This document shows positions 42,317 through 59,736 of a stretch of DNA of 64,000 bases, in pieces. This DNA is from Myxococcota bacterium (GTDB lineage: Bacteria > Myxococcota_A > UBA9160 > JAFDDA01). Below the pieces are notes generated by a model that saw nothing but the letters and a program-made list of their open reading frames with translations, had not been told where the DNA came from and ran no database searches. The number at the start of each line of letters is the position of its first letter. The first letter of the stretch is position 1. The DNA is taken from NCBI GenBank assembly GCA_965228475.1, contig OZ245817.1, positions 2,656,001-2,720,000 of the forward strand, written 5' to 3'. The translations under genes were made by a program, and so were the position numbers.

Positions 42317-43063
42317 ATGCGCAAGTTGTTTGCAATTATGGCCGCTGGCTCGCTGTTGGTGGGCGGTGCGGTTCAGGCGGCGCCGGTGGCGACGAACATC
42401 ATCGTCACCGTCACCATCCAGGGCCTCGGCCCGATTTCGTTCTCGGGTGCTGGCACGGTTTCCGTGACCGGTAGCACCGTGTCGATCGCTGCTGGCGCCG
42501 TTTCGCTGCCGGCTCCGGTCGTCGTGCCCGTCACGGCCACCACGGCCGTCACGTCCATCACCGCCATGACCGTCAGCAACCAGGCTGGCACGTTCTCGGC
42601 CGGTGGCGTGACTGCCCAGGCTGCTGGCGAAGTTTGCCCCGGTGGCGGCCCCGCGGCTGGCGCGGCGTGCAACGCCGGCGGCGGCGTTGGCGGCATCATG
42701 GGCCTCTCGGGCTTCATCAACGTGGCCGTCATCCCGATGGTCGTCGTGATCCCGGTGGACCTGAACGCTGCTCTGCTCGGTCAGGGTGGTGCCACGGCCT
42801 CGCCGTTCACGATCGACGCCGCCGTGTTCAGCACGGGCGTCGGCTCGGTGAACTCGGGCACGAACATCATCACGTCGGCCGGTTCGTCGGGCCCGCTCAC
42901 GCTGGTCTCGCCGACCTTCGTGTCGGCCCTCGGCAACCTGCTCCCGATCTTCACGGCGATCACGTTCACGAACGTGAGCCTGCCGGTGCCGGAGCCGGGC
43001 AGCCTGCTGCTCATCGGCACGGGCATCGCGGGCCTCGCCCTTCTCGGCAGCCGCCGGAAGTAA
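42317..43063 (+). CDS. PEP-CTERM surface protein, tandem copy 1
   Basis: Signal peptide ending AVQA, mature region rich in G/A/S/T/V with almost no charge, C-terminus VPEPGSLLLIGTGIAGLALLGSRRK. RBS GAGGAG. Confidence 0.93.
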   Translation: MRKLFAIMAAGSLLVGGAVQAAPVATNIIVTVTIQGLGPISFSGAGTVSVTGSTVSIAAGAVSLPAPVVVPVTATTAVTSITAMTVSNQAGTFSAGGVTAQAAGEVCPGGGPAAGAACNAGGGVGGIMGLSGFINVAVIPMVVVIPVDLNAALLGQGGATASPFTIDAAVFSTGVGSVNSGTNIITSAGSSGPLTLVSPTFVSALGNLLPIFTAITFTNVSLPVPEPGSLLLIGTGIAGLALLGSRRK

Positions 43064-43147: not shown

Positions 43148-43366
43148 CGGTCAGCCGGACCGAAAGAGCCAGCAGGGAGCGGCTAGCGACGGCCTGATCC
43201 CCGCGGGGCGTCCATGTTGCCAAAAACCCGCTGAATCGAGAAGAAAAGTGCTCCGGTCGGTGACACATCCCGATTCCCAGGGCCACCTACTCCCTGCATA
43301 CCGGTTTCGGTCCGCTGCGCGCCCCGTAGGCGTTCGCGGCCGCCGGTCAGAGGAGTGGAAACTATC

Positions 43367-44110
43367 ATGCGTAAGTTGTTTGCAATCATGGCCGCGGGCT
43401 CGCTCTTGGTGGGCGGCGCGGTTCAGGCGGCGCCGGTGGCGACGAACATCATCGTCACCGTCACCATCCAGGGCCTCGGCCCGATTTCGTTCTCGGGTGC
43501 TGGCACGGTTTCCGTGACCGGTAGCACCGTGTCGATCGCTGCTGGCGCCGTTTCGCTGCCGGCTCCGGTCGTCGTGCCCGTCACGGCCACCACGGCCGTC
43601 ACGTCCATCACCGCCATGACCGTCAGCAACCAGGCTGGCACGTTCTCGGCCGGTGGCGTGACTGCCCAGGCTGCGAGCGAGCTCTGCGGCGGCGGCCCCG
43701 GCGCGGGCGTTGCCTGCAACGCCGGCGGTGGCGTTGGCGGCATCATGGGCCTCTCGGGCTTCATCAACGTGGCCGTCATCCCGATGGTCGTCGTGATCCC
43801 GGTGGATCTGAACGCTGCTCTGCTCGGCCAGGGTGGTGCGACGAACTCCCCGTTCACGATCGACGCCGCCGTGTTCAGCACGGGCGTCGGCTCGGTGAAC
43901 TCGGGCACGAACATCATCACGTCGGCCGGTTCGTCGGGCCCGCTCACGCTGGTCTCGCCGACCTTCGTGTCGGCCCTCGGCAACCTGCTCCCGATCTTCA
44001 CGGCGATCACGTTCACGAACGTGAGCCTGCCGGTGCCGGAGCCGGGCAGCCTGCTGCTCATCGGCACGGGCATCGCGGGCCTCGCCCTTCTCGGCAGCCG
44101 CCGGAAGTAA
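43367..44110 (+). CDS. PEP-CTERM surface protein, tandem copy 2 (near-identical to copy 1)
   Basis: Same protein as 42317..43063 except for the Cys-bounded loop and one A/N change. RBS GAGGAG. Confidence 0.93.
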   Translation: MRKLFAIMAAGSLLVGGAVQAAPVATNIIVTVTIQGLGPISFSGAGTVSVTGSTVSIAAGAVSLPAPVVVPVTATTAVTSITAMTVSNQAGTFSAGGVTAQAASELCGGGPGAGVACNAGGGVGGIMGLSGFINVAVIPMVVVIPVDLNAALLGQGGATNSPFTIDAAVFSTGVGSVNSGTNIITSAGSSGPLTLVSPTFVSALGNLLPIFTAITFTNVSLPVPEPGSLLLIGTGIAGLALLGSRRK

Positions 44111-45892: not shown

Positions 45893-47338
45893 ATGCGTCG
45901 AGACCGAGCCTGGATCGCCGCCATCGCCTGCGCAGGACTGCTCCGCGTCCTTCTCCTCGCCGCTGCCTTTCCCTACTTCCACCCGATCGACGAACACCAG
46001 CACGTCGAGACGATCCACCGCTGGTCGCGGGGCACGCTTCCCGGCCCCGAGACGAGCCGGCTCGGCGACCCGGTGGTCGACTGGGCCCTCCGCTTCGGAA
46101 CCTTCGAGTACCTCGATCCGAACCCGCCGCCGCCCTACTTCGCACGGCCCGGCTACCGGCCGGGCGTCGCCTGGGAAGGGACGGCGCGGCGCGCTTTCGA
46201 AGCCGTCGTGAACCAGGAAGCCGAGAGCCCGCCCGGCTACTACGCACCGGCGGCCCTCTGGTACCGCGTGGGCGAACTCGTTCTCTCCGATCAGGCCCTG
46301 CTGTTCTGGGTCCGTGCGCTCAACGGGTTCGCGCTCCTCGCGCTGGTCCTCCTGAGCCATGCCTGGCTCCGCCGCCGACACCCGGACGATCCTCTCCTCT
46401 ATCGCGGCGTGCCGGCCTTGATGGCCTTCCTCCCGCAGGACGCCTTCTACGGGATCGGACCGGACGGCGCCTGCGCCCTGCTCGGCGGGCTCGCCTTCAT
46501 GGCGGCCGTCGGCGCGGCAGAGGCCGACGGGACGCGCGACGGCGCGGGCCGGGATGTGCGAGCGGGCCTGCTGGCCGCCGTGGCGTTCCTCGCCAAGTAC
46601 ACGAACCTGCTCTACTTCGGGCTGCTCGGGCTCGCCTACGCCGCCCGAAGCCACGCCCACGGCGCTGCCGCCGCGGCCCGCCGGGCGGCCGCCGCCCTGG
46701 GCGTCGCCGCCCTCGCCGCCGGCGCGTGGATCGCGCGCAACCTCGCGGTCCTCGGAGACCCCTTCGGAACGGCCAGGAAGGTCGAGCACCTCGAGTGGCA
46801 GGCCCGGCCGTGGGGCGAGCTCTTCTCGCACCCGATCTTCACGCCCGCCGGGTTCGCAACCTGGTGGACGGAGACGCTCGTCCACTTCTGGCGCGGGGAG
46901 TTCCGCTGGCTCGGGGAGCCGATGACCTGGCCCGCGCTCGACACCGCGCTCTGGGCCGTGTCCTCGGCCGCCCTCGCGGCGGGGACGGTCTCCGCCTGGC
47001 GGGCCGCCCGGCGGCGGGACCGGCTCGAGCCCTTCGCCGCCCTCGCCGTGGCGGGAGGGTTCGCGACGCTCGCCGTCCTCTCCACGCGCTTCACCTTCGC
47101 GGACTGGGGGAACCCGACGCGCATGCACCCCTACTTCACGGAGGGGCGGCTCATCCTCGGGGTGCTGCTCCCCTTCGCCGTGGTCTTCGTGCGGGGCGTG
47201 GGGACACTGAGCGAACGAGTTCCGAACGGAGACCGCCTGGCAGCCTGCGCGCTCGGCTCCTGGCTCGCACTCGTCACCGCAGCGGATTTCGTGCTCGCGG
47301 CGCCCGCCTTCGCGAGCCCCTGGAACCTCTTCCCCTGA
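45893..47338 (+). CDS. GT-C fold membrane glycosyltransferase (DUF2142/ArnT-PMT-like)
   Basis: PIDEHQH after TM1, ESPPGYY, FLAKYT, EGRLI, about 10-11 TM segments. Confidence 0.7.
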   Translation: MRRDRAWIAAIACAGLLRVLLLAAAFPYFHPIDEHQHVETIHRWSRGTLPGPETSRLGDPVVDWALRFGTFEYLDPNPPPPYFARPGYRPGVAWEGTARRAFEAVVNQEAESPPGYYAPAALWYRVGELVLSDQALLFWVRALNGFALLALVLLSHAWLRRRHPDDPLLYRGVPALMAFLPQDAFYGIGPDGACALLGGLAFMAAVGAAEADGTRDGAGRDVRAGLLAAVAFLAKYTNLLYFGLLGLAYAARSHAHGAAAAARRAAAALGVAALAAGAWIARNLAVLGDPFGTARKVEHLEWQARPWGELFSHPIFTPAGFATWWTETLVHFWRGEFRWLGEPMTWPALDTALWAVSSAALAAGTVSAWRAARRRDRLEPFAALAVAGGFATLAVLSTRFTFADWGNPTRMHPYFTEGRLILGVLLPFAVVFVRGVGTLSERVPNGDRLAACALGSWLALVTAADFVLAAPAFASPWNLFP

Positions 47339-52904: not shown

Positions 52905-53876
52905 CTAGCCGTCGAGGTGCCGACGAAGCTCCCGCAGCGCGCCACGGTGGTTGGCGGGAAGCGAACGCAGGGCCGAGCGGGGAGCCCGGCGCGGCGGGAC
53001 GCCGCCCGCGTGCTCGATGAAGCGCACCACCCAGCCCCGGCGGCCGCTGAACGGTGCGAGCAGCTCGAGCATGCGTTCGTCGCCGGCCCGCCGCTCGCCC
53101 GCGAGGTTCCAGGCGACGTGGCTCGGCAGATGGAGGTCTCCGATCGGGAACGCGTCCGGCCGACCGCCCGCGTAGAGTTCGAGCGAGCTCACCGTCCACG
53201 GCCCGATGCCGGGCAGCGCTCGAAGGCGGGAGGTCGCCCCCGGTGCCCCGAGGTGTCCGAATCCGGAGAGGCGCGCGGCCTCCCGTCCGACGTTCCGCAG
53301 CGTTGCGCCGCGCCTGGCATCGAGGCCGAGGGGCGCGAAGGCCCAGTCGGGCAGCCGGGCGACGCGCTCGGGATCGGGCGGCAGCCACAGGGCGGGGAAC
53401 GGGCCCGGCGCGGGCTCGGAGGCGATGCTCACGAGCGCGCGGTGGCTTCGCGCCGCCTCCTTGCCCGAGACCTTCTGCTGGAGAACCAGCAGGAAGAGGA
53501 ACGGCAGCCAATCCTCGAGGCACGAAAGGCGAAGCCCCTCGCAGGCCCGGACCAGCCTGCGAATCCGCGGCGGGAAGCCCTCCGGCCGGGGTGCGTCGCT
53601 GGCCAGCCCGAGCAGGGCCGGCGCGGATTCGAGCGCCGCCTCCGCCCCCGCGCCGTAGGCGACGAGGCGAAGCGAGCCGGGCCGGTGCAGGATGCACAGC
53701 GTCGCCGGCCCGAGAGCGGTCCGCTCCGCGCGCAGCCACCCCACCTCGCCGCCGGCTTCGACCACGCGCTGGGTCGGATCGGCGAAGCCCGAGGAGAGCG
53801 GCCGCGCGATCGCCCGGAGATCGAGGGGGCCCTCGAAGGCGAGGTGCCGCTCGAGCGGGGCCGCGCCGGCGTTCAC
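52905..53876 (-). CDS. AlkA-like HhH-GPD DNA-3-methyladenine glycosylase
   Basis: VLQQKVSG, HhH LRALPGIGPWT, DAFPIGDLHL, LLAPFSGRRG. GTG overlaps the STT3 stop. It is the real part of ORF 52905..56135. Confidence 0.85.
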   Translation of the reverse strand: MNAGAAPLERHLAFEGPLDLRAIARPLSSGFADPTQRVVEAGGEVGWLRAERTALGPATLCILHRPGSLRLVAYGAGAEAALESAPALLGLASDAPRPEGFPPRIRRLVRACEGLRLSCLEDWLPFLFLLVLQQKVSGKEAARSHRALVSIASEPAPGPFPALWLPPDPERVARLPDWAFAPLGLDARRGATLRNVGREAARLSGFGHLGAPGATSRLRALPGIGPWTVSSLELYAGGRPDAFPIGDLHLPSHVAWNLAGERRAGDERMLELLAPFSGRRGWVVRFIEHAGGVPPRRAPRSALRSLPANHRGALRELRRHLDG

Positions 53877-56170
53877 CGGGAGAAGTCCGGGGCCGCGATG
53901 CGGCGGCCTTCGCGGACGTCTTCCTCGCCGACGTCGACCGTGCGCTCGGCACCGCTCGCAAAGACCCCGTACCCGCCGCGGCTTCGAACCCGGCCGTTGG
54001 CTTCCCGCGTCGCGTAGGGAACCCGGAGACGGTAGACGCCGTCGGTGCCCGCCCGGGTGCGGGAGCCCCACGCGAACTCCCGGCCACCGGCCGTTGCCAG
54101 GGCGAGTTCCACCGAGACCTCCGCTCCGGGCGGCGCCCGCCCTTCGAGCTCGGCCCCTCGGACGAACTCGTAGAGCTTGAAGAACGGCTGCTCGGGCGCC
54201 CAGGGCTTCGGCCGGGCCTCGTACACCAGACGGTGACGCTCGAGGGCCGGCACGTCGACGACGACCTCCCGGAACGCCGCGGGCAGGGTGCGCGCCCGGG
54301 AGCGCTGCGCCGCCTGGCCGTCCGCGAAGAAGGCTCGGGCGATCATCGAGCGGGGTCCGAACTCCGCGAGCGCGCCCTGGCGCCGATACTCGAGGACGAC
54401 GTAGCGGACGCCGAAGGCATCGAGGATCTCCGCGGCTTCGGGCTCGCTCGCCGCGAAGTAGCGGGCCATCGCATCCATGCCCTCGGGTCCGAGGTCGTCC
54501 CCGAAGTTCGTGACGACCGCGGGGCGTTCGCCGGCGGTCAGCAGGATGTGCCCGTTCGCCCAGAAACCCAGCACGCCGTACTCCGGCGGCGAGCCGCCGC
54601 GGGCTTCGAAGCCGCTCGTCGGCGGAGAGTTGCCGCGCAGCCAGCTGGCCAGGCGATGCAGCTCGCGCCGCTGGAGCTGGTCCGCGGCGAGCCTCATCGG
54701 CTGGCCCGCACGCAGCGCAGCCCGGCGCTCGAGGGCCGGGGCGAACCCCTGGAGCGTCGGGAGCAGGAGCAGGAGACCGAGCGCCACCGTCCCTCCAGCG
54801 AGCAGCGCGCGGACGAACCGCCCCCGCTCGGCGAGTCGCAGCCGCCGGGGCAGCTCGACGACGAAGGTCCAGCCGAGCAGCAGCGCCAGGAGAACCGAGA
54901 AGGGATTCGCGAAGCGCCGCTGGGCCAGCGTCGCCAGCGCCAGCCCGACCAGCAAGACGAGGAACAGCCACGCGCTCGGATCGAAGGGCCGCTGGCGGAG
55001 TCGGGCGAGGAACGCCCAGGCCAGAACCGGAACGAAGAGGAACCCACCCGAGAGCTGCTGCAGGCCCTCGGCGAGGCGGCCCCGCGGGTCCGGGGCGAAC
55101 AGGGCCTGGGACTCGGCGACCTGACTCTGGAAGGACTCGGTCCGCGCCAGCCAGGACCACATGCGGCCCGGTGCTTCCCCGAGCTCGGGCAGGAGGAGGC
55201 CGCTCCCGAGCGCCAGCGCCGCCGCCGAGCCGAGGGCCACGGCGAGCCGCTGGGCCGGCGGGCGATGGGCCACGCTGGCGAGGGCCGCGAAGCAGAGGCT
55301 CGCGCAGGCGAGCAGCCAGGGCTGGAAGCCGCCGAGCACGACCGGCGCGAAGCCGCCCCAATAGGCGTAGTCGCGGCCGGCGAAGGGCAGGAGGAAGAGG
55401 AGCGAAAGTCCGTGGACCAGGCTGGCTCGCAGGCACAGGGCGCGGGCGAACCTCGCGTCGAGGAAGACGGCCCAGGCCGCGAACGTCGCGGAGACGAGCA
55501 GGAGCTGGAGGAGCGACCCGGGCCAGACGAGGAGCGACCCCGCCTGGGTGGCTGCCAGCGCCCCGACGGCAGCCACGTCCCGGCCAGCCCAGCGCTCGGC
55601 CCCCGACGCCCGGAGGGCGAGTCCGCTCCCGGCGGCGAGGAAGGCCAGGGTCACCAGGGGCTCCGCCGCGTGGTGGTCGAGCATCCCGAAGCGGCTGTAG
55701 ACGGCGTGGGCCGGGAGGATCGCCAGAACGCCGGCGGCGGCGAGGCCCGAACCGGGCCCGAAGCGCCAGGCTCCCCAGGCGAAGCAGCCGAGGATCGCCG
55801 CACCCCCGAGCCAGACCGGGACGGCCATGGCGAAGGCCGCCAGCCGCTCGGGCGGCACGTCCGGCCCGAGCCGGAGCCGCGCCGCCGCCGCCACGCTCCA
55901 ATCGAGGCCCGGAGGCCAGATCACGTCGCCGCCCGTAGGGTGGTTCAGGTAGGGGTCCCGCTCGAGGACCTCGGGGAAGTTCGCGTAGCTGAAGCAAACG
56001 CGGCGCAGGTGGTAGTAGGCATCCGGTCCGACCGGGCGGATCCCCTCGGCGGTCCGGACCGTCGGCGCATCGAGCATGCGCAGGTTCGCCCCGAGGGCGA
56101 GCACACCCAGGAGCAAGAGCCCGGCAACGGCCCACGCGGCCCGATCGCGGCGGTGTTCGGCGTCCCCCAC
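53873..56170 (-). CDS. STT3-family oligosaccharyltransferase, archaeal AglB-like
   Basis: GPDAYYHLRR, DPYLNHPTG..IWPPG, DHHAAE, QVAESQAL (TIxE-like), QRRF, YGVLGFWANGH at the WWDYG position, C-terminal FKLYEFVRGA...RLRVPY. About 13 TMs. Confidence 0.85.
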   Translation of the reverse strand: MGDAEHRRDRAAWAVAGLLLLGVLALGANLRMLDAPTVRTAEGIRPVGPDAYYHLRRVCFSYANFPEVLERDPYLNHPTGGDVIWPPGLDWSVAAAARLRLGPDVPPERLAAFAMAVPVWLGGAAILGCFAWGAWRFGPGSGLAAAGVLAILPAHAVYSRFGMLDHHAAEPLVTLAFLAAGSGLALRASGAERWAGRDVAAVGALAATQAGSLLVWPGSLLQLLLVSATFAAWAVFLDARFARALCLRASLVHGLSLLFLLPFAGRDYAYWGGFAPVVLGGFQPWLLACASLCFAALASVAHRPPAQRLAVALGSAAALALGSGLLLPELGEAPGRMWSWLARTESFQSQVAESQALFAPDPRGRLAEGLQQLSGGFLFVPVLAWAFLARLRQRPFDPSAWLFLVLLVGLALATLAQRRFANPFSVLLALLLGWTFVVELPRRLRLAERGRFVRALLAGGTVALGLLLLLPTLQGFAPALERRAALRAGQPMRLAADQLQRRELHRLASWLRGNSPPTSGFEARGGSPPEYGVLGFWANGHILLTAGERPAVVTNFGDDLGPEGMDAMARYFAASEPEAAEILDAFGVRYVVLEYRRQGALAEFGPRSMIARAFFADGQAAQRSRARTLPAAFREVVVDVPALERHRLVYEARPKPWAPEQPFFKLYEFVRGAELEGRAPPGAEVSVELALATAGGREFAWGSRTRAGTDGVYRLRVPYATREANGRVRSRGGYGVFASGAERTVDVGEEDVREGRRIAAPDFSR

Positions 56171-56241
56171 GCGGCCATTCTAGGCGCGTTCCGGGGGTCG
56201 GCGCGCGCCCCGGAGGCAGATCACCGGCAGAACGAAAAACG

Positions 56242-56271
56242 TTGACTTGTCGAAGGGTTGCCGGTTATGGT
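56242..56271 (+). promoter_or_regulatory. Candidate sigma70 promoter
   Basis: TTGACT-N18-TATGGT, about 50 bp upstream of 56320, preceded by an A-tract. Confidence 0.55.
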
Positions 56272-56319: not shown

Positions 56320-59300
56320 ATGTCGATGCCCGCCCTGTTTCGCTCGTCCCTTGCACTCGCCGTGTTGCTCGCCGCCGCCGGCTGCTCGCCGAACCCGAAG
56401 GCCCCGGAGGTCGGCGCGCAGCTGTTCCAAAGCCCGCACGTGAACTCGATCGCGCTCGCGCGCGCGGACCGCAAGCTCGTGGTCGCGAACACGACCTCGG
56501 CCACGGTGTCGGTCTTCGAGACGAACCTGCTGCCGCACGATCCCGAAGGCGCGCTGATCGGCGAGATCGCCGTCGGCATCGATCCGGTGAGCGTCGCGAT
56601 CCGGCCGAAGAACGGCCCGAACGACCGCGACCTCGCGCTCGTCGCGAACCACATCTCCGACTCGATCTCGGTCATCGACCTATCGAAGCTCGGTGTCGTG
56701 CAGACCCTCCAGGAGTTCGACGCGGACGGCGTGACCACCACGGATGCCCCGACCGGCATCGTGTTCGCGAGCCCGGACCGCGCCTTCGTCGCACTCGACG
56801 ACCGCGACGAGATCGTGGTGATCGACTTCGACGCGAACGGCCGCGCCAGCATCAACCCGGAGCGGCTGCCGATCACGGCCCAGGCGCCGCGCGCCATGAC
56901 CGTCGTGGGCGACCGGCTGCTCGTCGGGGCCTTCGAGTCCGGCAACCAGACGGAGTTCCCGAACTGCGGCCCCCTCGATACGCCGGCGACCGCCCCCTTC
57001 CTCCCGGGCGACCCCTACGACGAAGGCTGCATGTTCTACAACCGCTTCATCGAGAGCATCACCGTCAACGACATCTTCAACCTCGACCTCGACCTCGAGT
57101 TCGGCGTGATCGTCGACTTCGCCGCGCGCAACCCGAACATCGGCGGCGAGGTCGTGATCGACCGCGACCGGCCCGACCGCGACGTCTTCGTCTTCGACGT
57201 GGCCGCCCTCGGCGCGCCGCTCCAGGTGATCGACGGCGTCAGCACCCTGCTCTACGGCATGGAGAGCAGCGGCAACCGCGTGTTCGTGACGAGCGCCGAC
57301 GGCCGGAACGATCTCGACGGCCTCGACGACCTCGACAACCGGATGTTCGAGAACCGCATCTCCTGGTTCGACTGCGACCCGGACTGCGGCCCGGTCCAGC
57401 ACCGGGACCTCGACCAGAACGCCCACGGCGTGCCGGTGCCGACGCCCTACGGCGTCCGGGCCAGCGCCGACGGCTCGGCCCTGGTCGTCGCCGTCTCCGG
57501 CTCCGACGGGATCCCCGGCCTCGCCGAAGACCCGACGACGGACATCCCCGGCCTCGTCACCCTCGACGCCTCGGGCAACGTGCTCGGCCACGTCCAGACC
57601 GGCGCCATTCCGCAGAGCGTGGCTCTCGCGAGCGACGAAGCCGGCGCGGCCCAGACCGCCTACGTCCTGAACGTCGTCGACAGCACGATCTCCGTCGTGG
57701 ACGTGAGCGACCTCGCGAACCCCCAGATCCTCGGCACGTTCAGCGTCGGCAACGACCCGACGCCGCCCGAGATCCGGGACGGCCGCAGGAACTTCATGTC
57801 GGCCCGCGCTTCGACGAAGGGCACCTTCTCCTGCGAGTCCTGCCACCCGAACGGGAACACGGACCAGCTCATCTGGACGATCAACACGGTCGAGAGCCGC
57901 GAAGACGTGCCGGAGTGCAACCCCTTCGAGGAGAACTGCCCGGAGCCGCGCACCACGATGCCGACCCCGCGCGGCCTGCGGGACACGCTCCCGCTGCACT
58001 GGCTCGGCAACCTCGCCGACCCCTTCCCGGACCACGAAGACCAGCTCTTCCAGCCCGAGGACGACGGCGCGCCGGACTGCGATCTCGAGACCGACGGCGA
58101 GATCGGCTGCGCCCGGCACCTCGTGAACGCGAGCCTCTCGGGCGTCATGTGCGACCAGGCCGGCGGCTGCGCGGTCGGCCCCTCGGGCCTGCCCGGCGCC
58201 TACACGGAGGCCGAGCGCAACGCCATGGCCGCCTTCATGATGTCCGTGAGCTACCCGCCCTCGCCCACCCGCCGCCCGGACGACGCCCTGTCGCCGGTGG
58301 CCATGCAGGGCGTGACGGACTTCTTCACGGACGAAGACGGGCTCGGCGTCGGGAGCGCGGCGGCCGGCGTCGGCGCGGCGGTCGGCTTCTCGCCGATCAC
58401 GTGCGCCGACAACTCCGGCGGCTGCCACGCCCTCCCGCTCACCGTCGACACCAACAGCCTCACGGTCGGCGCCTTCGACGTGCCGACCATGCGTGGCATG
58501 TGGGACCGCCACGTGCAGTTCTCGAACGGCAGCCCGAGCTCGGAAGAGGTGCTCCGCGCCGGCCAGGACTGCGCCGACGGCAACCCGCCCGGCGACCACC
58601 CGAACCTCGGGAACTTCCTCACCGGCGACCCGTGCGCCCTCGCGTCGCCCTTCATCGAGGCGTTCCTGGGCTTCCAGCTCGACCCCTTCCAGGGCGTTCC
58701 GAGCGGCGAGGAGATCTACGACCCGGCGGTCGGCGTGACCGAGCGCGGCGTCTTCCTCTCGACGTTCGAGTCGCTCTTCCAGCTCGCCTACGGCGTGCGG
58801 GGCGCCCCGATGTGGGAGTTCTTCTCGGAGATGGGCGTCGGCTTCGCAGGCGTCTACGGCCGCCAGCTCACCGTCGACGCGAGCGACGCGCAGTCGCCGG
58901 CGACCCAGGACGCGCTGAACCCGCTGGTCGCCGCAGCCGACGAGGGCCGCATCGCCCTGCGCGCGAGCTTCATGGGTGGGGACCGCGACTACTCCTACTC
59001 CGAGGGCCGCTGGCACCTGACCCAGCTCCCCGACGACAAGGAGAGCAACGGCTTCACGACCGAGAAGGTCCTCCAGCAGGTGGTCGACTGGGACCAGGTC
59101 CTGACCTTCACCGCCCACCTCCGCGAGGGCATCAGCATCGGCGGCGCGGATCGCCAGCCGCTGCTCCACGTGGACCCGGAGCGCAAGGAGACCGAGGACT
59201 TCGGCGAGCTGCTCGCCATCCCGCGGCCCGAGCCCCTGCCGAACCAGGCCTTCCGCATCGGCGGCATCTACGTCGACCCGGCGGCCAAGATCCTGGTCAA

Positions 59301-59736
59301 CGGCGCGCTCTGCGAAGACTGCAGCTTCACCATGGGCACGACCGAGTTCGGAACCCACCTCGACGTGACGCTCGTCGACGCGCTCCCGCTCGGCACGCAC
59401 GTCATGCAGGTGATGAACCCGGACGGCTGGATCAGCAACGAGATGCCGCTCCAGGTCGAGTTCCCGCCGCCGCCCTTCGTCCAGGTGCCCGACGAGACGA
59501 TCGAGTGCATGGAAGAGGCCGGCTGCTTCACCGACGCCGATCCGATCGGCTGCGGCGCGCTCGCGGGCTGCACGGATCTGCCGGGCAGCGTGGTCTGCGA
59601 AGAAGCCGGCGGCTTCCTCGACTGCGACAGCTGCGTGGTCGAACCGGACTGCTCCGACGGGAGCTGCACGCCGGTCTCGGACACGCTGCTCGTCCCGACC
59701 GGCCCGGGCAACTGCGGGATCCCGATCGAGCTCTGA
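56320..59736 (+). CDS. Large secreted lipoprotein: YncE-like beta-propeller, c-type heme domain(s), Cys-rich acidic C-terminus
   Basis: Lipobox AAGC, propeller repeats (VANTTSATVSVF, VANHISDSISVID), CESCH, CADNSGGCH, VPTMRG. Confidence 0.78.
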   Translation: MSMPALFRSSLALAVLLAAAGCSPNPKAPEVGAQLFQSPHVNSIALARADRKLVVANTTSATVSVFETNLLPHDPEGALIGEIAVGIDPVSVAIRPKNGPNDRDLALVANHISDSISVIDLSKLGVVQTLQEFDADGVTTTDAPTGIVFASPDRAFVALDDRDEIVVIDFDANGRASINPERLPITAQAPRAMTVVGDRLLVGAFESGNQTEFPNCGPLDTPATAPFLPGDPYDEGCMFYNRFIESITVNDIFNLDLDLEFGVIVDFAARNPNIGGEVVIDRDRPDRDVFVFDVAALGAPLQVIDGVSTLLYGMESSGNRVFVTSADGRNDLDGLDDLDNRMFENRISWFDCDPDCGPVQHRDLDQNAHGVPVPTPYGVRASADGSALVVAVSGSDGIPGLAEDPTTDIPGLVTLDASGNVLGHVQTGAIPQSVALASDEAGAAQTAYVLNVVDSTISVVDVSDLANPQILGTFSVGNDPTPPEIRDGRRNFMSARASTKGTFSCESCHPNGNTDQLIWTINTVESREDVPECNPFEENCPEPRTTMPTPRGLRDTLPLHWLGNLADPFPDHEDQLFQPEDDGAPDCDLETDGEIGCARHLVNASLSGVMCDQAGGCAVGPSGLPGAYTEAERNAMAAFMMSVSYPPSPTRRPDDALSPVAMQGVTDFFTDEDGLGVGSAAAGVGAAVGFSPITCADNSGGCHALPLTVDTNSLTVGAFDVPTMRGMWDRHVQFSNGSPSSEEVLRAGQDCADGNPPGDHPNLGNFLTGDPCALASPFIEAFLGFQLDPFQGVPSGEEIYDPAVGVTERGVFLSTFESLFQLAYGVRGAPMWEFFSEMGVGFAGVYGRQLTVDASDAQSPATQDALNPLVAAADEGRIALRASFMGGDRDYSYSEGRWHLTQLPDDKESNGFTTEKVLQQVVDWDQVLTFTAHLREGISIGGADRQPLLHVDPERKETEDFGELLAIPRPEPLPNQAFRIGGIYVDPAAKILVNGALCEDCSFTMGTTEFGTHLDVTLVDALPLGTHVMQVMNPDGWISNEMPLQVEFPPPPFVQVPDETIECMEEAGCFTDADPIGCGALAGCTDLPGSVVCEEAGGFLDCDSCVVEPDCSDGSCTPVSDTLLVPTGPGNCGIPIEL

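Follow-up and report, generated by a model that had tools for sequence, protein, structure and literature searches.

Within a 64,000-nucleotide window of a Myxococcota genome (contig OZ245817.1 of assembly GCA_965228475.1, positions 2,656,001 to 2,720,000), we identified a gene for an AglB-like membrane glycosyltransferase that keeps the catalytic and lipid-phosphate residues of oligosaccharyltransferases (OSTs) but, by alignment, belongs to a family in which the entire pocket for Ser or Thr at position +2 of the N-x-S/T sequon is eroded. The protein is probably an active transferase that does not select its acceptor by N-x-S/T; we infer its activity, donor and acceptor. Since WWDYG and the DK/MI motif have been described as universal in OSTs and as the reason for Ser/Thr at +2, a large and constrained family with the chemistry but no pocket separates catalysis from sequon reading.

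Catalytic site and sequon pocket

Conservation was scored in a close set of 147 aligned homologues, drawn from 161 proteins chosen by similarity to the query with 9 fragments and 5 distant sequences left out, and in a distant set of 47, assembled after dropping sequences gapped at the motif, nine that the tree places with archaeal AglBs and one duplicated entry. The features of the gene are as follows, in window coordinates, with counts from the close set and AglB-L denoting the Archaeoglobus fulgidus enzyme.

53873..56170, minus strand: AglB-like (GT66/GT-C) membrane glycosyltransferase, open reading frame (ORF) of 765 amino acids with a GTG start
56021..56023, minus strand: D50, equivalent of catalytic D47 (AglB-L) and D56 (PglB); Asp in 145/147, the other 2 being gaps
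55670..55678, minus strand: D165-H166-H167, corresponding to the metal site D161-H162-H163 of AglB-L; conserved in 147, 147 and 146 of 147
55112..55120, minus strand: V-A-E353, TIXE-equivalent motif in external loop 5 (EL5); Glu in 145/147, Val in 138/147
54911..54922, minus strand: Q-R-R419-F, with R419 corresponding to R426 of AglB-L (lipid-phosphate site); Q417 and R419 invariant, 147/147
54548..54565, minus strand: FWANGH at the WWDYGH position; substitutions at the first Trp, the Asp and the Tyr, with the second Trp, Gly and His kept
54494..54511, minus strand: TNFGDD loop (family consensus DNFGDD), with G557 at the AglB-L Q571 position, beside the peptide site
54371..54406, minus strand: region after RYVV, site of the DK motif in AglBs; no Asp or Lys is conserved here across the family
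53897..54157, minus strand: C-terminal peripheral beta domain AglB_L1 (Pfam PF18079, E = 1.4e-18)

The focal protein therefore carries the full GT66 catalytic set of Asp, DxD/DxH, TIXE/SVSE Glu and phosphate-binding Arg, and the catalytic residues are also retained in the alignment of 47 more distant homologues. A catalytic role of the D47/D56-type Asp is described in PMC7226087. The V-x-E-x-x-P strand of EL5, which in AglB-L pairs with the backbone of the acceptor peptide (PMC8342417, PMC12229607), is kept across the 147 homologues. An AlphaFold2 model built from these 147 sequences (pLDDT 96) has the GT66 fold, a GT-C membrane domain followed by a C-terminal core domain, and its best match is AglB-L (Foldseek E = 1e-32; Z = 32.6 over 696 residues, root-mean-square deviation 2.8 Å). 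Z scores were 28-29 for human STT3A, 24.8 for DPY19, 22 for PglB and 16.9 for ArnT. In Pfam the protein matches AglB_core-like and AglB_L1 domains; against TIGR04154, the model for archaeosortase-A-associated AglBs, it scores 269.8 bits, below the cut-off of 450, and so falls outside that group. An earlier note on this DNA had called an AglB-like ORF at 53873-56170 with its catalytic acids (in GPDAYY, DHH and VAE) retained, and had found its DPY..P.G..I.WPP and C-terminal VPY features closer to AglB than to PglB. The ORF call, Pfam and fold bear out the first point and the near-fixation of the acids the second; the motifs of the third are present, and the fold is closer to AglB-L than to PglB (Z scores of 32.6 versus 22).

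The same note had read the WWDYG position as FWANG, which both bases and alignment confirm: the minus strand at 54551-54565 is TTC TGG GCG AAC GGG, residues 536-540, and aligns with WWDYG of the A. fulgidus AglBs. WWD occurs in 1/147 close homologues, in 0/47 distant ones and in none of the five paralogues of the source genome, which read FWANG (focal), SWDAG, NWSDG, AWDAG and NWGVG; among archaeal AglBs, 37/42 have WWDYG. Residue by residue, the close set keeps the first Trp in 1, the Asp in 26 and the second Trp (W537) in 137 of 147. There are 109 distinct 5-mers at the motif, only x-W-x-x-G-H being kept, and the motif is HWSNG, PWDDG or HWTDG in orthologues that share 49-58% identity with the focal protein. 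The varied orthologues and the 109 5-mers rule out FWA as a fixed new determinant. The earlier note had suggested asking whether FWANG-like variants form a clade. By itself FWA is no signature but one draw from a relaxed site. A side branch (L051, L068 and L100, in records titled Planctomycetota) carries WWDLG, FWDLG and TWSRG together with an NFGDD loop, and its members resemble natural intermediates.

The loss extends beyond this motif. The Q571 position is Gly in 139/147 family members versus Gln in 41/42 archaeal AglBs, and the loop that follows is subfamily-specific (DNFGDD, DNFGVY or DNFGPY). No conserved D..K follows RYVV in the family alignment segments as inspected by eye, and a displaced equivalent may exist; by the same inspection, D..K is present in most Methanosarcinales AglBs compared. 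D552, Q571 and K618 of AglB-L lie near the peptide site (PMC8342417), and WWDYG and DK/MI, the latter including K618 in AglB-L, are described as jointly building the Ser/Thr pocket (PMC3703281, PMC8342417). The Tyr of WWDYG, which binds the donor's N-acetyl group (PMC7226087), is variable in the family. As the equivalents of W550, D552, Q571 and K618 are gone, N-x-S/T is presumably not read. The acceptor inference of the earlier note thus stands in part: the +2 pocket is lost, but FWA is not a meaningful new motif, since orthologues vary. Not covered in that note were the four further paralogues, the missing Q571 and DK lysine, and the hints of a lipid-monophosphate donor.

Could the pocket have been rebuilt? 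It seems improbable that the enzyme is still an N-x-S/T OST using the retained Trp with D558/D559, or with an Asp at 538/539. In favour, W537 is nearly fixed, D558 and D559 are present in 109/147 and 110/147, one member has WWDLG and the motif Asp persists in a minority. However, the motif is spelled in 109 ways and differs between orthologues, a pattern suggestive of relaxed constraint, and 32/147 have neither the Asp nor DD. The idea that the DD pair makes up for the missing Asp was rejected, as the two show no strict complementarity (89 sequences with DD only, 18 with both, 8 with Asp only and 32 with neither).

The focal gene is intact and under purifying selection. It is letter-for-letter identical over its full length in contigs from two sequencing runs, which are possibly its own source; no RNA data set is listed among those containing it. 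A different study yielded a strain contig, 97-98% identical and covering 54099-56248, with 49 differences; none of the 40 listed lies inside the motif, and these 40 comprise 25 synonymous and 15 non-synonymous changes (pN/pS 0.23). Against the orthologue in L033, dN/dS was ~0.39. Homologues without WWD, the strain contig and pN/pS together rule out private degeneration or sequencing error; the earlier note had named close homologues that all carry WWD as one finding that would overturn its reading, and WWD is nearly absent from them.

As purifying selection excludes decay, it also speaks against a protein that transfers nothing. The idea that the enzyme hydrolyses lipid-linked sugars, for carrier recycling or to release free glycan, or that it is a binding or scaffold protein, is very unlikely. 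An intact donor and metal site beside a lost acceptor pocket would leave donor hydrolysis, a side activity of AglB, PglB and STT3 alike (PMC8342417), and in Campylobacter jejuni PglB single WWDYG substitutions abolish glycosylation (PMC3527161), so that WWD mutants are transfer-dead. Hydrolysis by itself hardly accounts for five divergent paralogues in one genome and for the subfamily loops.

Donor, acceptor and a proposed mechanism

Our preferred model, to which we give somewhat less than an even chance, is an active periplasmic transferase with an exported protein as acceptor, not selected by N-x-S/T. An AglJ-like GT2 would load a sugar or short glycan onto a polyprenyl monophosphate, and the loaded lipid would be flipped outward. 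The focal inner-membrane enzyme would bind this lipid at R419 and H166, coordinate a divalent metal through D50, D165, H167 and E353, and glycosylate an exported protein docked along the retained EL5 strand, at one of its side chains and most likely at Asn. The target would be read by another local code, by its fold or by a partner.

Sixteen proteins of the source genome match the AglJ model, the top two at 227.7 and 124.1 bits, both below its cut-off. AglJ reportedly handles the first sugar in Haloferax. These two best AglJ-like GT2s (L103:7773-8738 and L102:5839-7575) flank paralogues NWSDG and SWDAG at distances of one and two genes, each accompanied by a methyltransferase gene, and AglJ was the best model for 8/10 neighbouring GT2s tested, all under its cut-off. 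A GT2 is the adjacent gene at 4/20 distant loci, versus 1% of genes in the source genome. Euryarchaeal AglBs are described as using monophosphate donors (PMC8342417), and AglJ as one of the enzymes that load sugars onto dolichol phosphate in Haloferax (PMC3871713); the donor is likely a polyprenyl-monophosphate sugar.

The source genome encodes ~86 PEP-CTERM proteins and two exosortases. We found no NxT excess in the PEP-CTERM proteins (48 observed versus 60.5 expected; 50 versus 61.4 with near-duplicates removed) or in the 371 predicted secreted proteins of the genome. Archaeal PGF-CTERM proteins are NxT-enriched (153 versus 66.5 expected in 30 proteins; 67 versus 38.0 in 19 after filtering). 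The absence of an excess agrees poorly with a rebuilt +2 pocket, although the test is weak. A search of 1308 gapped pairs for an alternative Asn-centred motif in the PEP-CTERM proteins gave nothing convincing (NP, z = 3.7; NxxxQ, z = 3.0), and the Bacteroidetes-type D-S/T-x and WxxW patterns were not enriched in exported proteins. PEP-CTERM proteins as the general substrate of the family found no support, given the missing NxT excess and the rarity of exosortases, found in 1/23 family-bearing genomes outside the class (family matches at E <1e-30). Co-occurrence with sortase-type anchoring (exosortase/PEP-CTERM) thus holds in the source genome and does not extend across the family. Two tandem, near-identical PEP-CTERM genes lie in the window at 42317-43063 and 43355-44110, with similar copies at other genome positions (C1 2505291 and 3284145). 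At G000:C1:2100000-2138000 the genome also has an exopolysaccharide (EPS) locus of the kind usual in PEP-CTERM systems, where an exosortase, a phosphoglycosyl transferase and Wzx/Wzy-like and Wzc-like proteins are encoded.

One subclade (4/20 distant loci) offers a lead toward a protein acceptor: its AglB-like genes without WWD lie divergently to a type IV pilin gene, with GH4, DegT aminotransferase and Gfo/Idh oxidoreductase genes downstream, probably as a single ancestral arrangement.

L151:7751-8323, L152:5489-6142, L153:5507-6079 and L155:5165-5737: type IV pilin genes, whose products end in VDNETE in 4/4

One of the two tandem pilin-like genes of the source genome was checked, and its product has no sequon, a further point against a rebuilt pocket.

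Several observations weigh against a protein acceptor chosen without a sequon. The N-E-T sequon shared near the C-terminus by all four subclade pilins fits canonical use equally well, through a rebuilt pocket. In a bacterial control, from a genome within the order that encodes a WWDYG STT3, NxT is not in excess either (10 versus 10.9, 17 proteins), so the sequon statistic is no proof of non-sequon use. Since the EL5 Glu has a second role at the metal, keeping it is no proof of a peptide acceptor, and as changes in PglB WWDYG kill activity, peptide binding would have to be rebuilt in another way. Exosortases are rare among family-bearing genomes outside the class, and a GT2 occurs in only 9/61 closer loci, none flanking the focal gene.

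The same donor chemistry could instead serve a non-polypeptide acceptor, namely a surface glycan, glycolipid, lipopolysaccharide (LPS) or protein-bound glycan, as in ArnT-, AglS- and ALG-type GT-C enzymes, with each paralogue adding a different sugar or linkage. We regard this as less likely than a protein acceptor, with several points in its favour. None of the side-chain contacts in the peptide pocket survives, not even the Tyr for the donor N-acetyl group, and a genome may hold up to six family matches. The source genome encodes LpxC and two phosphoglycosyl transferases, and therefore LPS and EPS acceptors exist. In addition, a second PMT_2-like GT-C is found in 28/41 loci of at least 12 kb and a sulfatase-fold gene in 16/41, versus 2% and 8% of random windows of the genome, although these counts come from related, non-independent genomes, with a one-genome background and seeds that the loci themselves supplied; the source genome's own five loci score 0 for GT-C seeds, with a score of 1 for sulfatase. 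On the other side stand the full AglB architecture, the retained EL5 peptide-pairing strand and the far poorer match of ArnT-type folds (Z of 17 versus 32).

With a protein acceptor, the family would define a new bacterial glycosylation rule, and its members could serve as natural templates for glyco-engineering free of sequons. With a glycan or lipid acceptor, an OST would have been turned into a surface-decorating GT-C enzyme. A broader possibility, which we hold with rather low confidence, is a widespread bacterial system derived from methanogenic archaea that attaches glycans carried on polyprenyl monophosphate to Asn or another side chain of exported proteins without a +2 Ser/Thr, with several sequon-independent enzymes of differing specificity per genome. 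The database label "asparagine N-glycosylation enzyme Stt3" borne by family proteins is unproven.

Distribution, origin and genomic context

The source genome is a single contig of 5.0 Mb, 96% complete. Beyond the five paralogues, a search of this genome with PF02516, PF22627 and PF21436 (the PglB core) revealed no canonical OST. Family matches occur in 38/61 genomes of the order, at most six per genome, and PF21436 matches in 2/61. Close homologues with named records are mostly from Myxococcota or Deltaproteobacteria metagenome-assembled genomes, and distant members from Thermodesulfobacteriota and Thermoanaerobaculia, going by record titles. In a protein atlas, the top clusters were AglB/STT3 proteins of Myxococcota and archaea. 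A plasmid search for the family returned one partial haloarchaeal AglB match only. One genome of the same order carries a canonical WWDYG STT3 (L186; G013:C1:1864-4377).

Two trees were built with the motif columns masked, one with FastTree (135 sequences, with 22 randomly sampled and 12 chosen closer loci) and one with IQ-TREE (51 sequences). The bacterial sequences adjoin the Methanotrichaceae AglBs in both (SH-like 0.999; SH-aLRT 98.8), with an archaeal sample from one phylum and no PglB or STT3 outgroup. Bacterial monophyly is weakly supported (0.66; 72.7), and branches are long. The earlier note had proposed a phylogeny with AglB, PglB and STT3; these trees favour euryarchaeal AglB ancestry, beside the Methanotrichaceae. 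We infer that the family descends from a euryarchaeal AglB, perhaps by transfer from a methanogen.

The gene immediately 3' of the focal gene is as follows.

52905..53876, minus strand: AlkA-like gene, with a 4-base overlap (GTGA) at the stop codon of the focal gene

Its product matches an Ada/AlkA protein (BLASTP E = 4e-9), and a search for a family match of its own found none. The gene is probably co-transcribed with the focal gene. Its frame stays open to 56135, spanning the entire focal gene, probably as a shadow ORF of high-GC DNA. A promoter scan at the focal gene gave a single weak site, oriented toward the divergent gene. None of the neighbours scanned is a pgl gene, as the earlier note had observed.

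Elsewhere in the window, 56320-59736 encodes an 1138-amino-acid lipoprotein with a beta-propeller, CxxCH motifs and a weak match to the hydrazine synthase beta subunit (E = 4e-7), a paralogue of which lies near the SWDAG paralogue (L102:16268 onward). A cluster at 32452-52689 contains two MFS/spermidine-synthase-like fusions, a membrane protein bearing tetratricopeptide repeats (TPR), two PrsT-like TPR proteins, PEP-CTERM genes and a sulfatase-fold protein. A 481-amino-acid membrane protein in this cluster (45893-47338) has no Pfam or NCBIfam match and is possibly GT-C-like, on the basis of a motif.

Comparison with known glycosyltransferases

Bacterial AglB-like enzymes lacking WWD were the subject of no paper that we found in the open-licence literature (main texts); the portion of PMC5131992 that treats the motif describes variation only within WWDXG, among archaeal paralogues. 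The closest structural relative, A. fulgidus AglB-L (PDB 3WAK, 7E9S, 3WAJ, 5GMY), shares with the focal protein its fold, its C-terminal AglB_L1 domain and the equivalents of D47, D161-H162-H163, E360, R426 and W215. It differs in that W550, D552, Y553, Q571 and K618 have no conserved equivalents in the family, that the focal host is bacterial and that identity is ~20%. R154 and H81 of AglB-L are mostly Tyr and Ile in the family, and both also vary among archaeal AglBs.

The TIGR04154 AglBs of the Methanotrichaceae (L096; P0175 of Ca. Methanocrinis alkalitolerans) have the GxDxYYHxRR, WPPxFD, DHH and QxRF motifs in common with the family, but unlike it retain WWD (WWDYG, WWDRG) and FQ. P0175 passes the TIGR04154 cut-off at 506.7 bits, unlike the five bacterial family proteins scanned (73-348 bits). 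The PglBs of Campylobacter and Desulfovibrio resemble the focal protein in their catalytic acids and in being single-subunit GT66 enzymes of bacteria, but match its model less well (Z = 22). Desulfovibrio PglB has relaxed sequon rules, at -2 and not at +2, and retains WWD (WWDYG, WWDWG) (PMC12229607).

DPY19, ArnT and other lipid-monophosphate GT-Cs share the GT-C fold but are far more distant than AglB, and a PDB profile search with the focal protein gave no sequence match to DPY19- or ArnT-type enzymes. DPY19 nevertheless offers a precedent for an STT3-like fold with other acceptor chemistry. Judged by its motifs, the focal enzyme is AglB-like on the donor side, yet because WWD(Y)G and DK/MI, two defining features of N-glycosylating OSTs, are both missing, it is not to be filed as a canonical OST.

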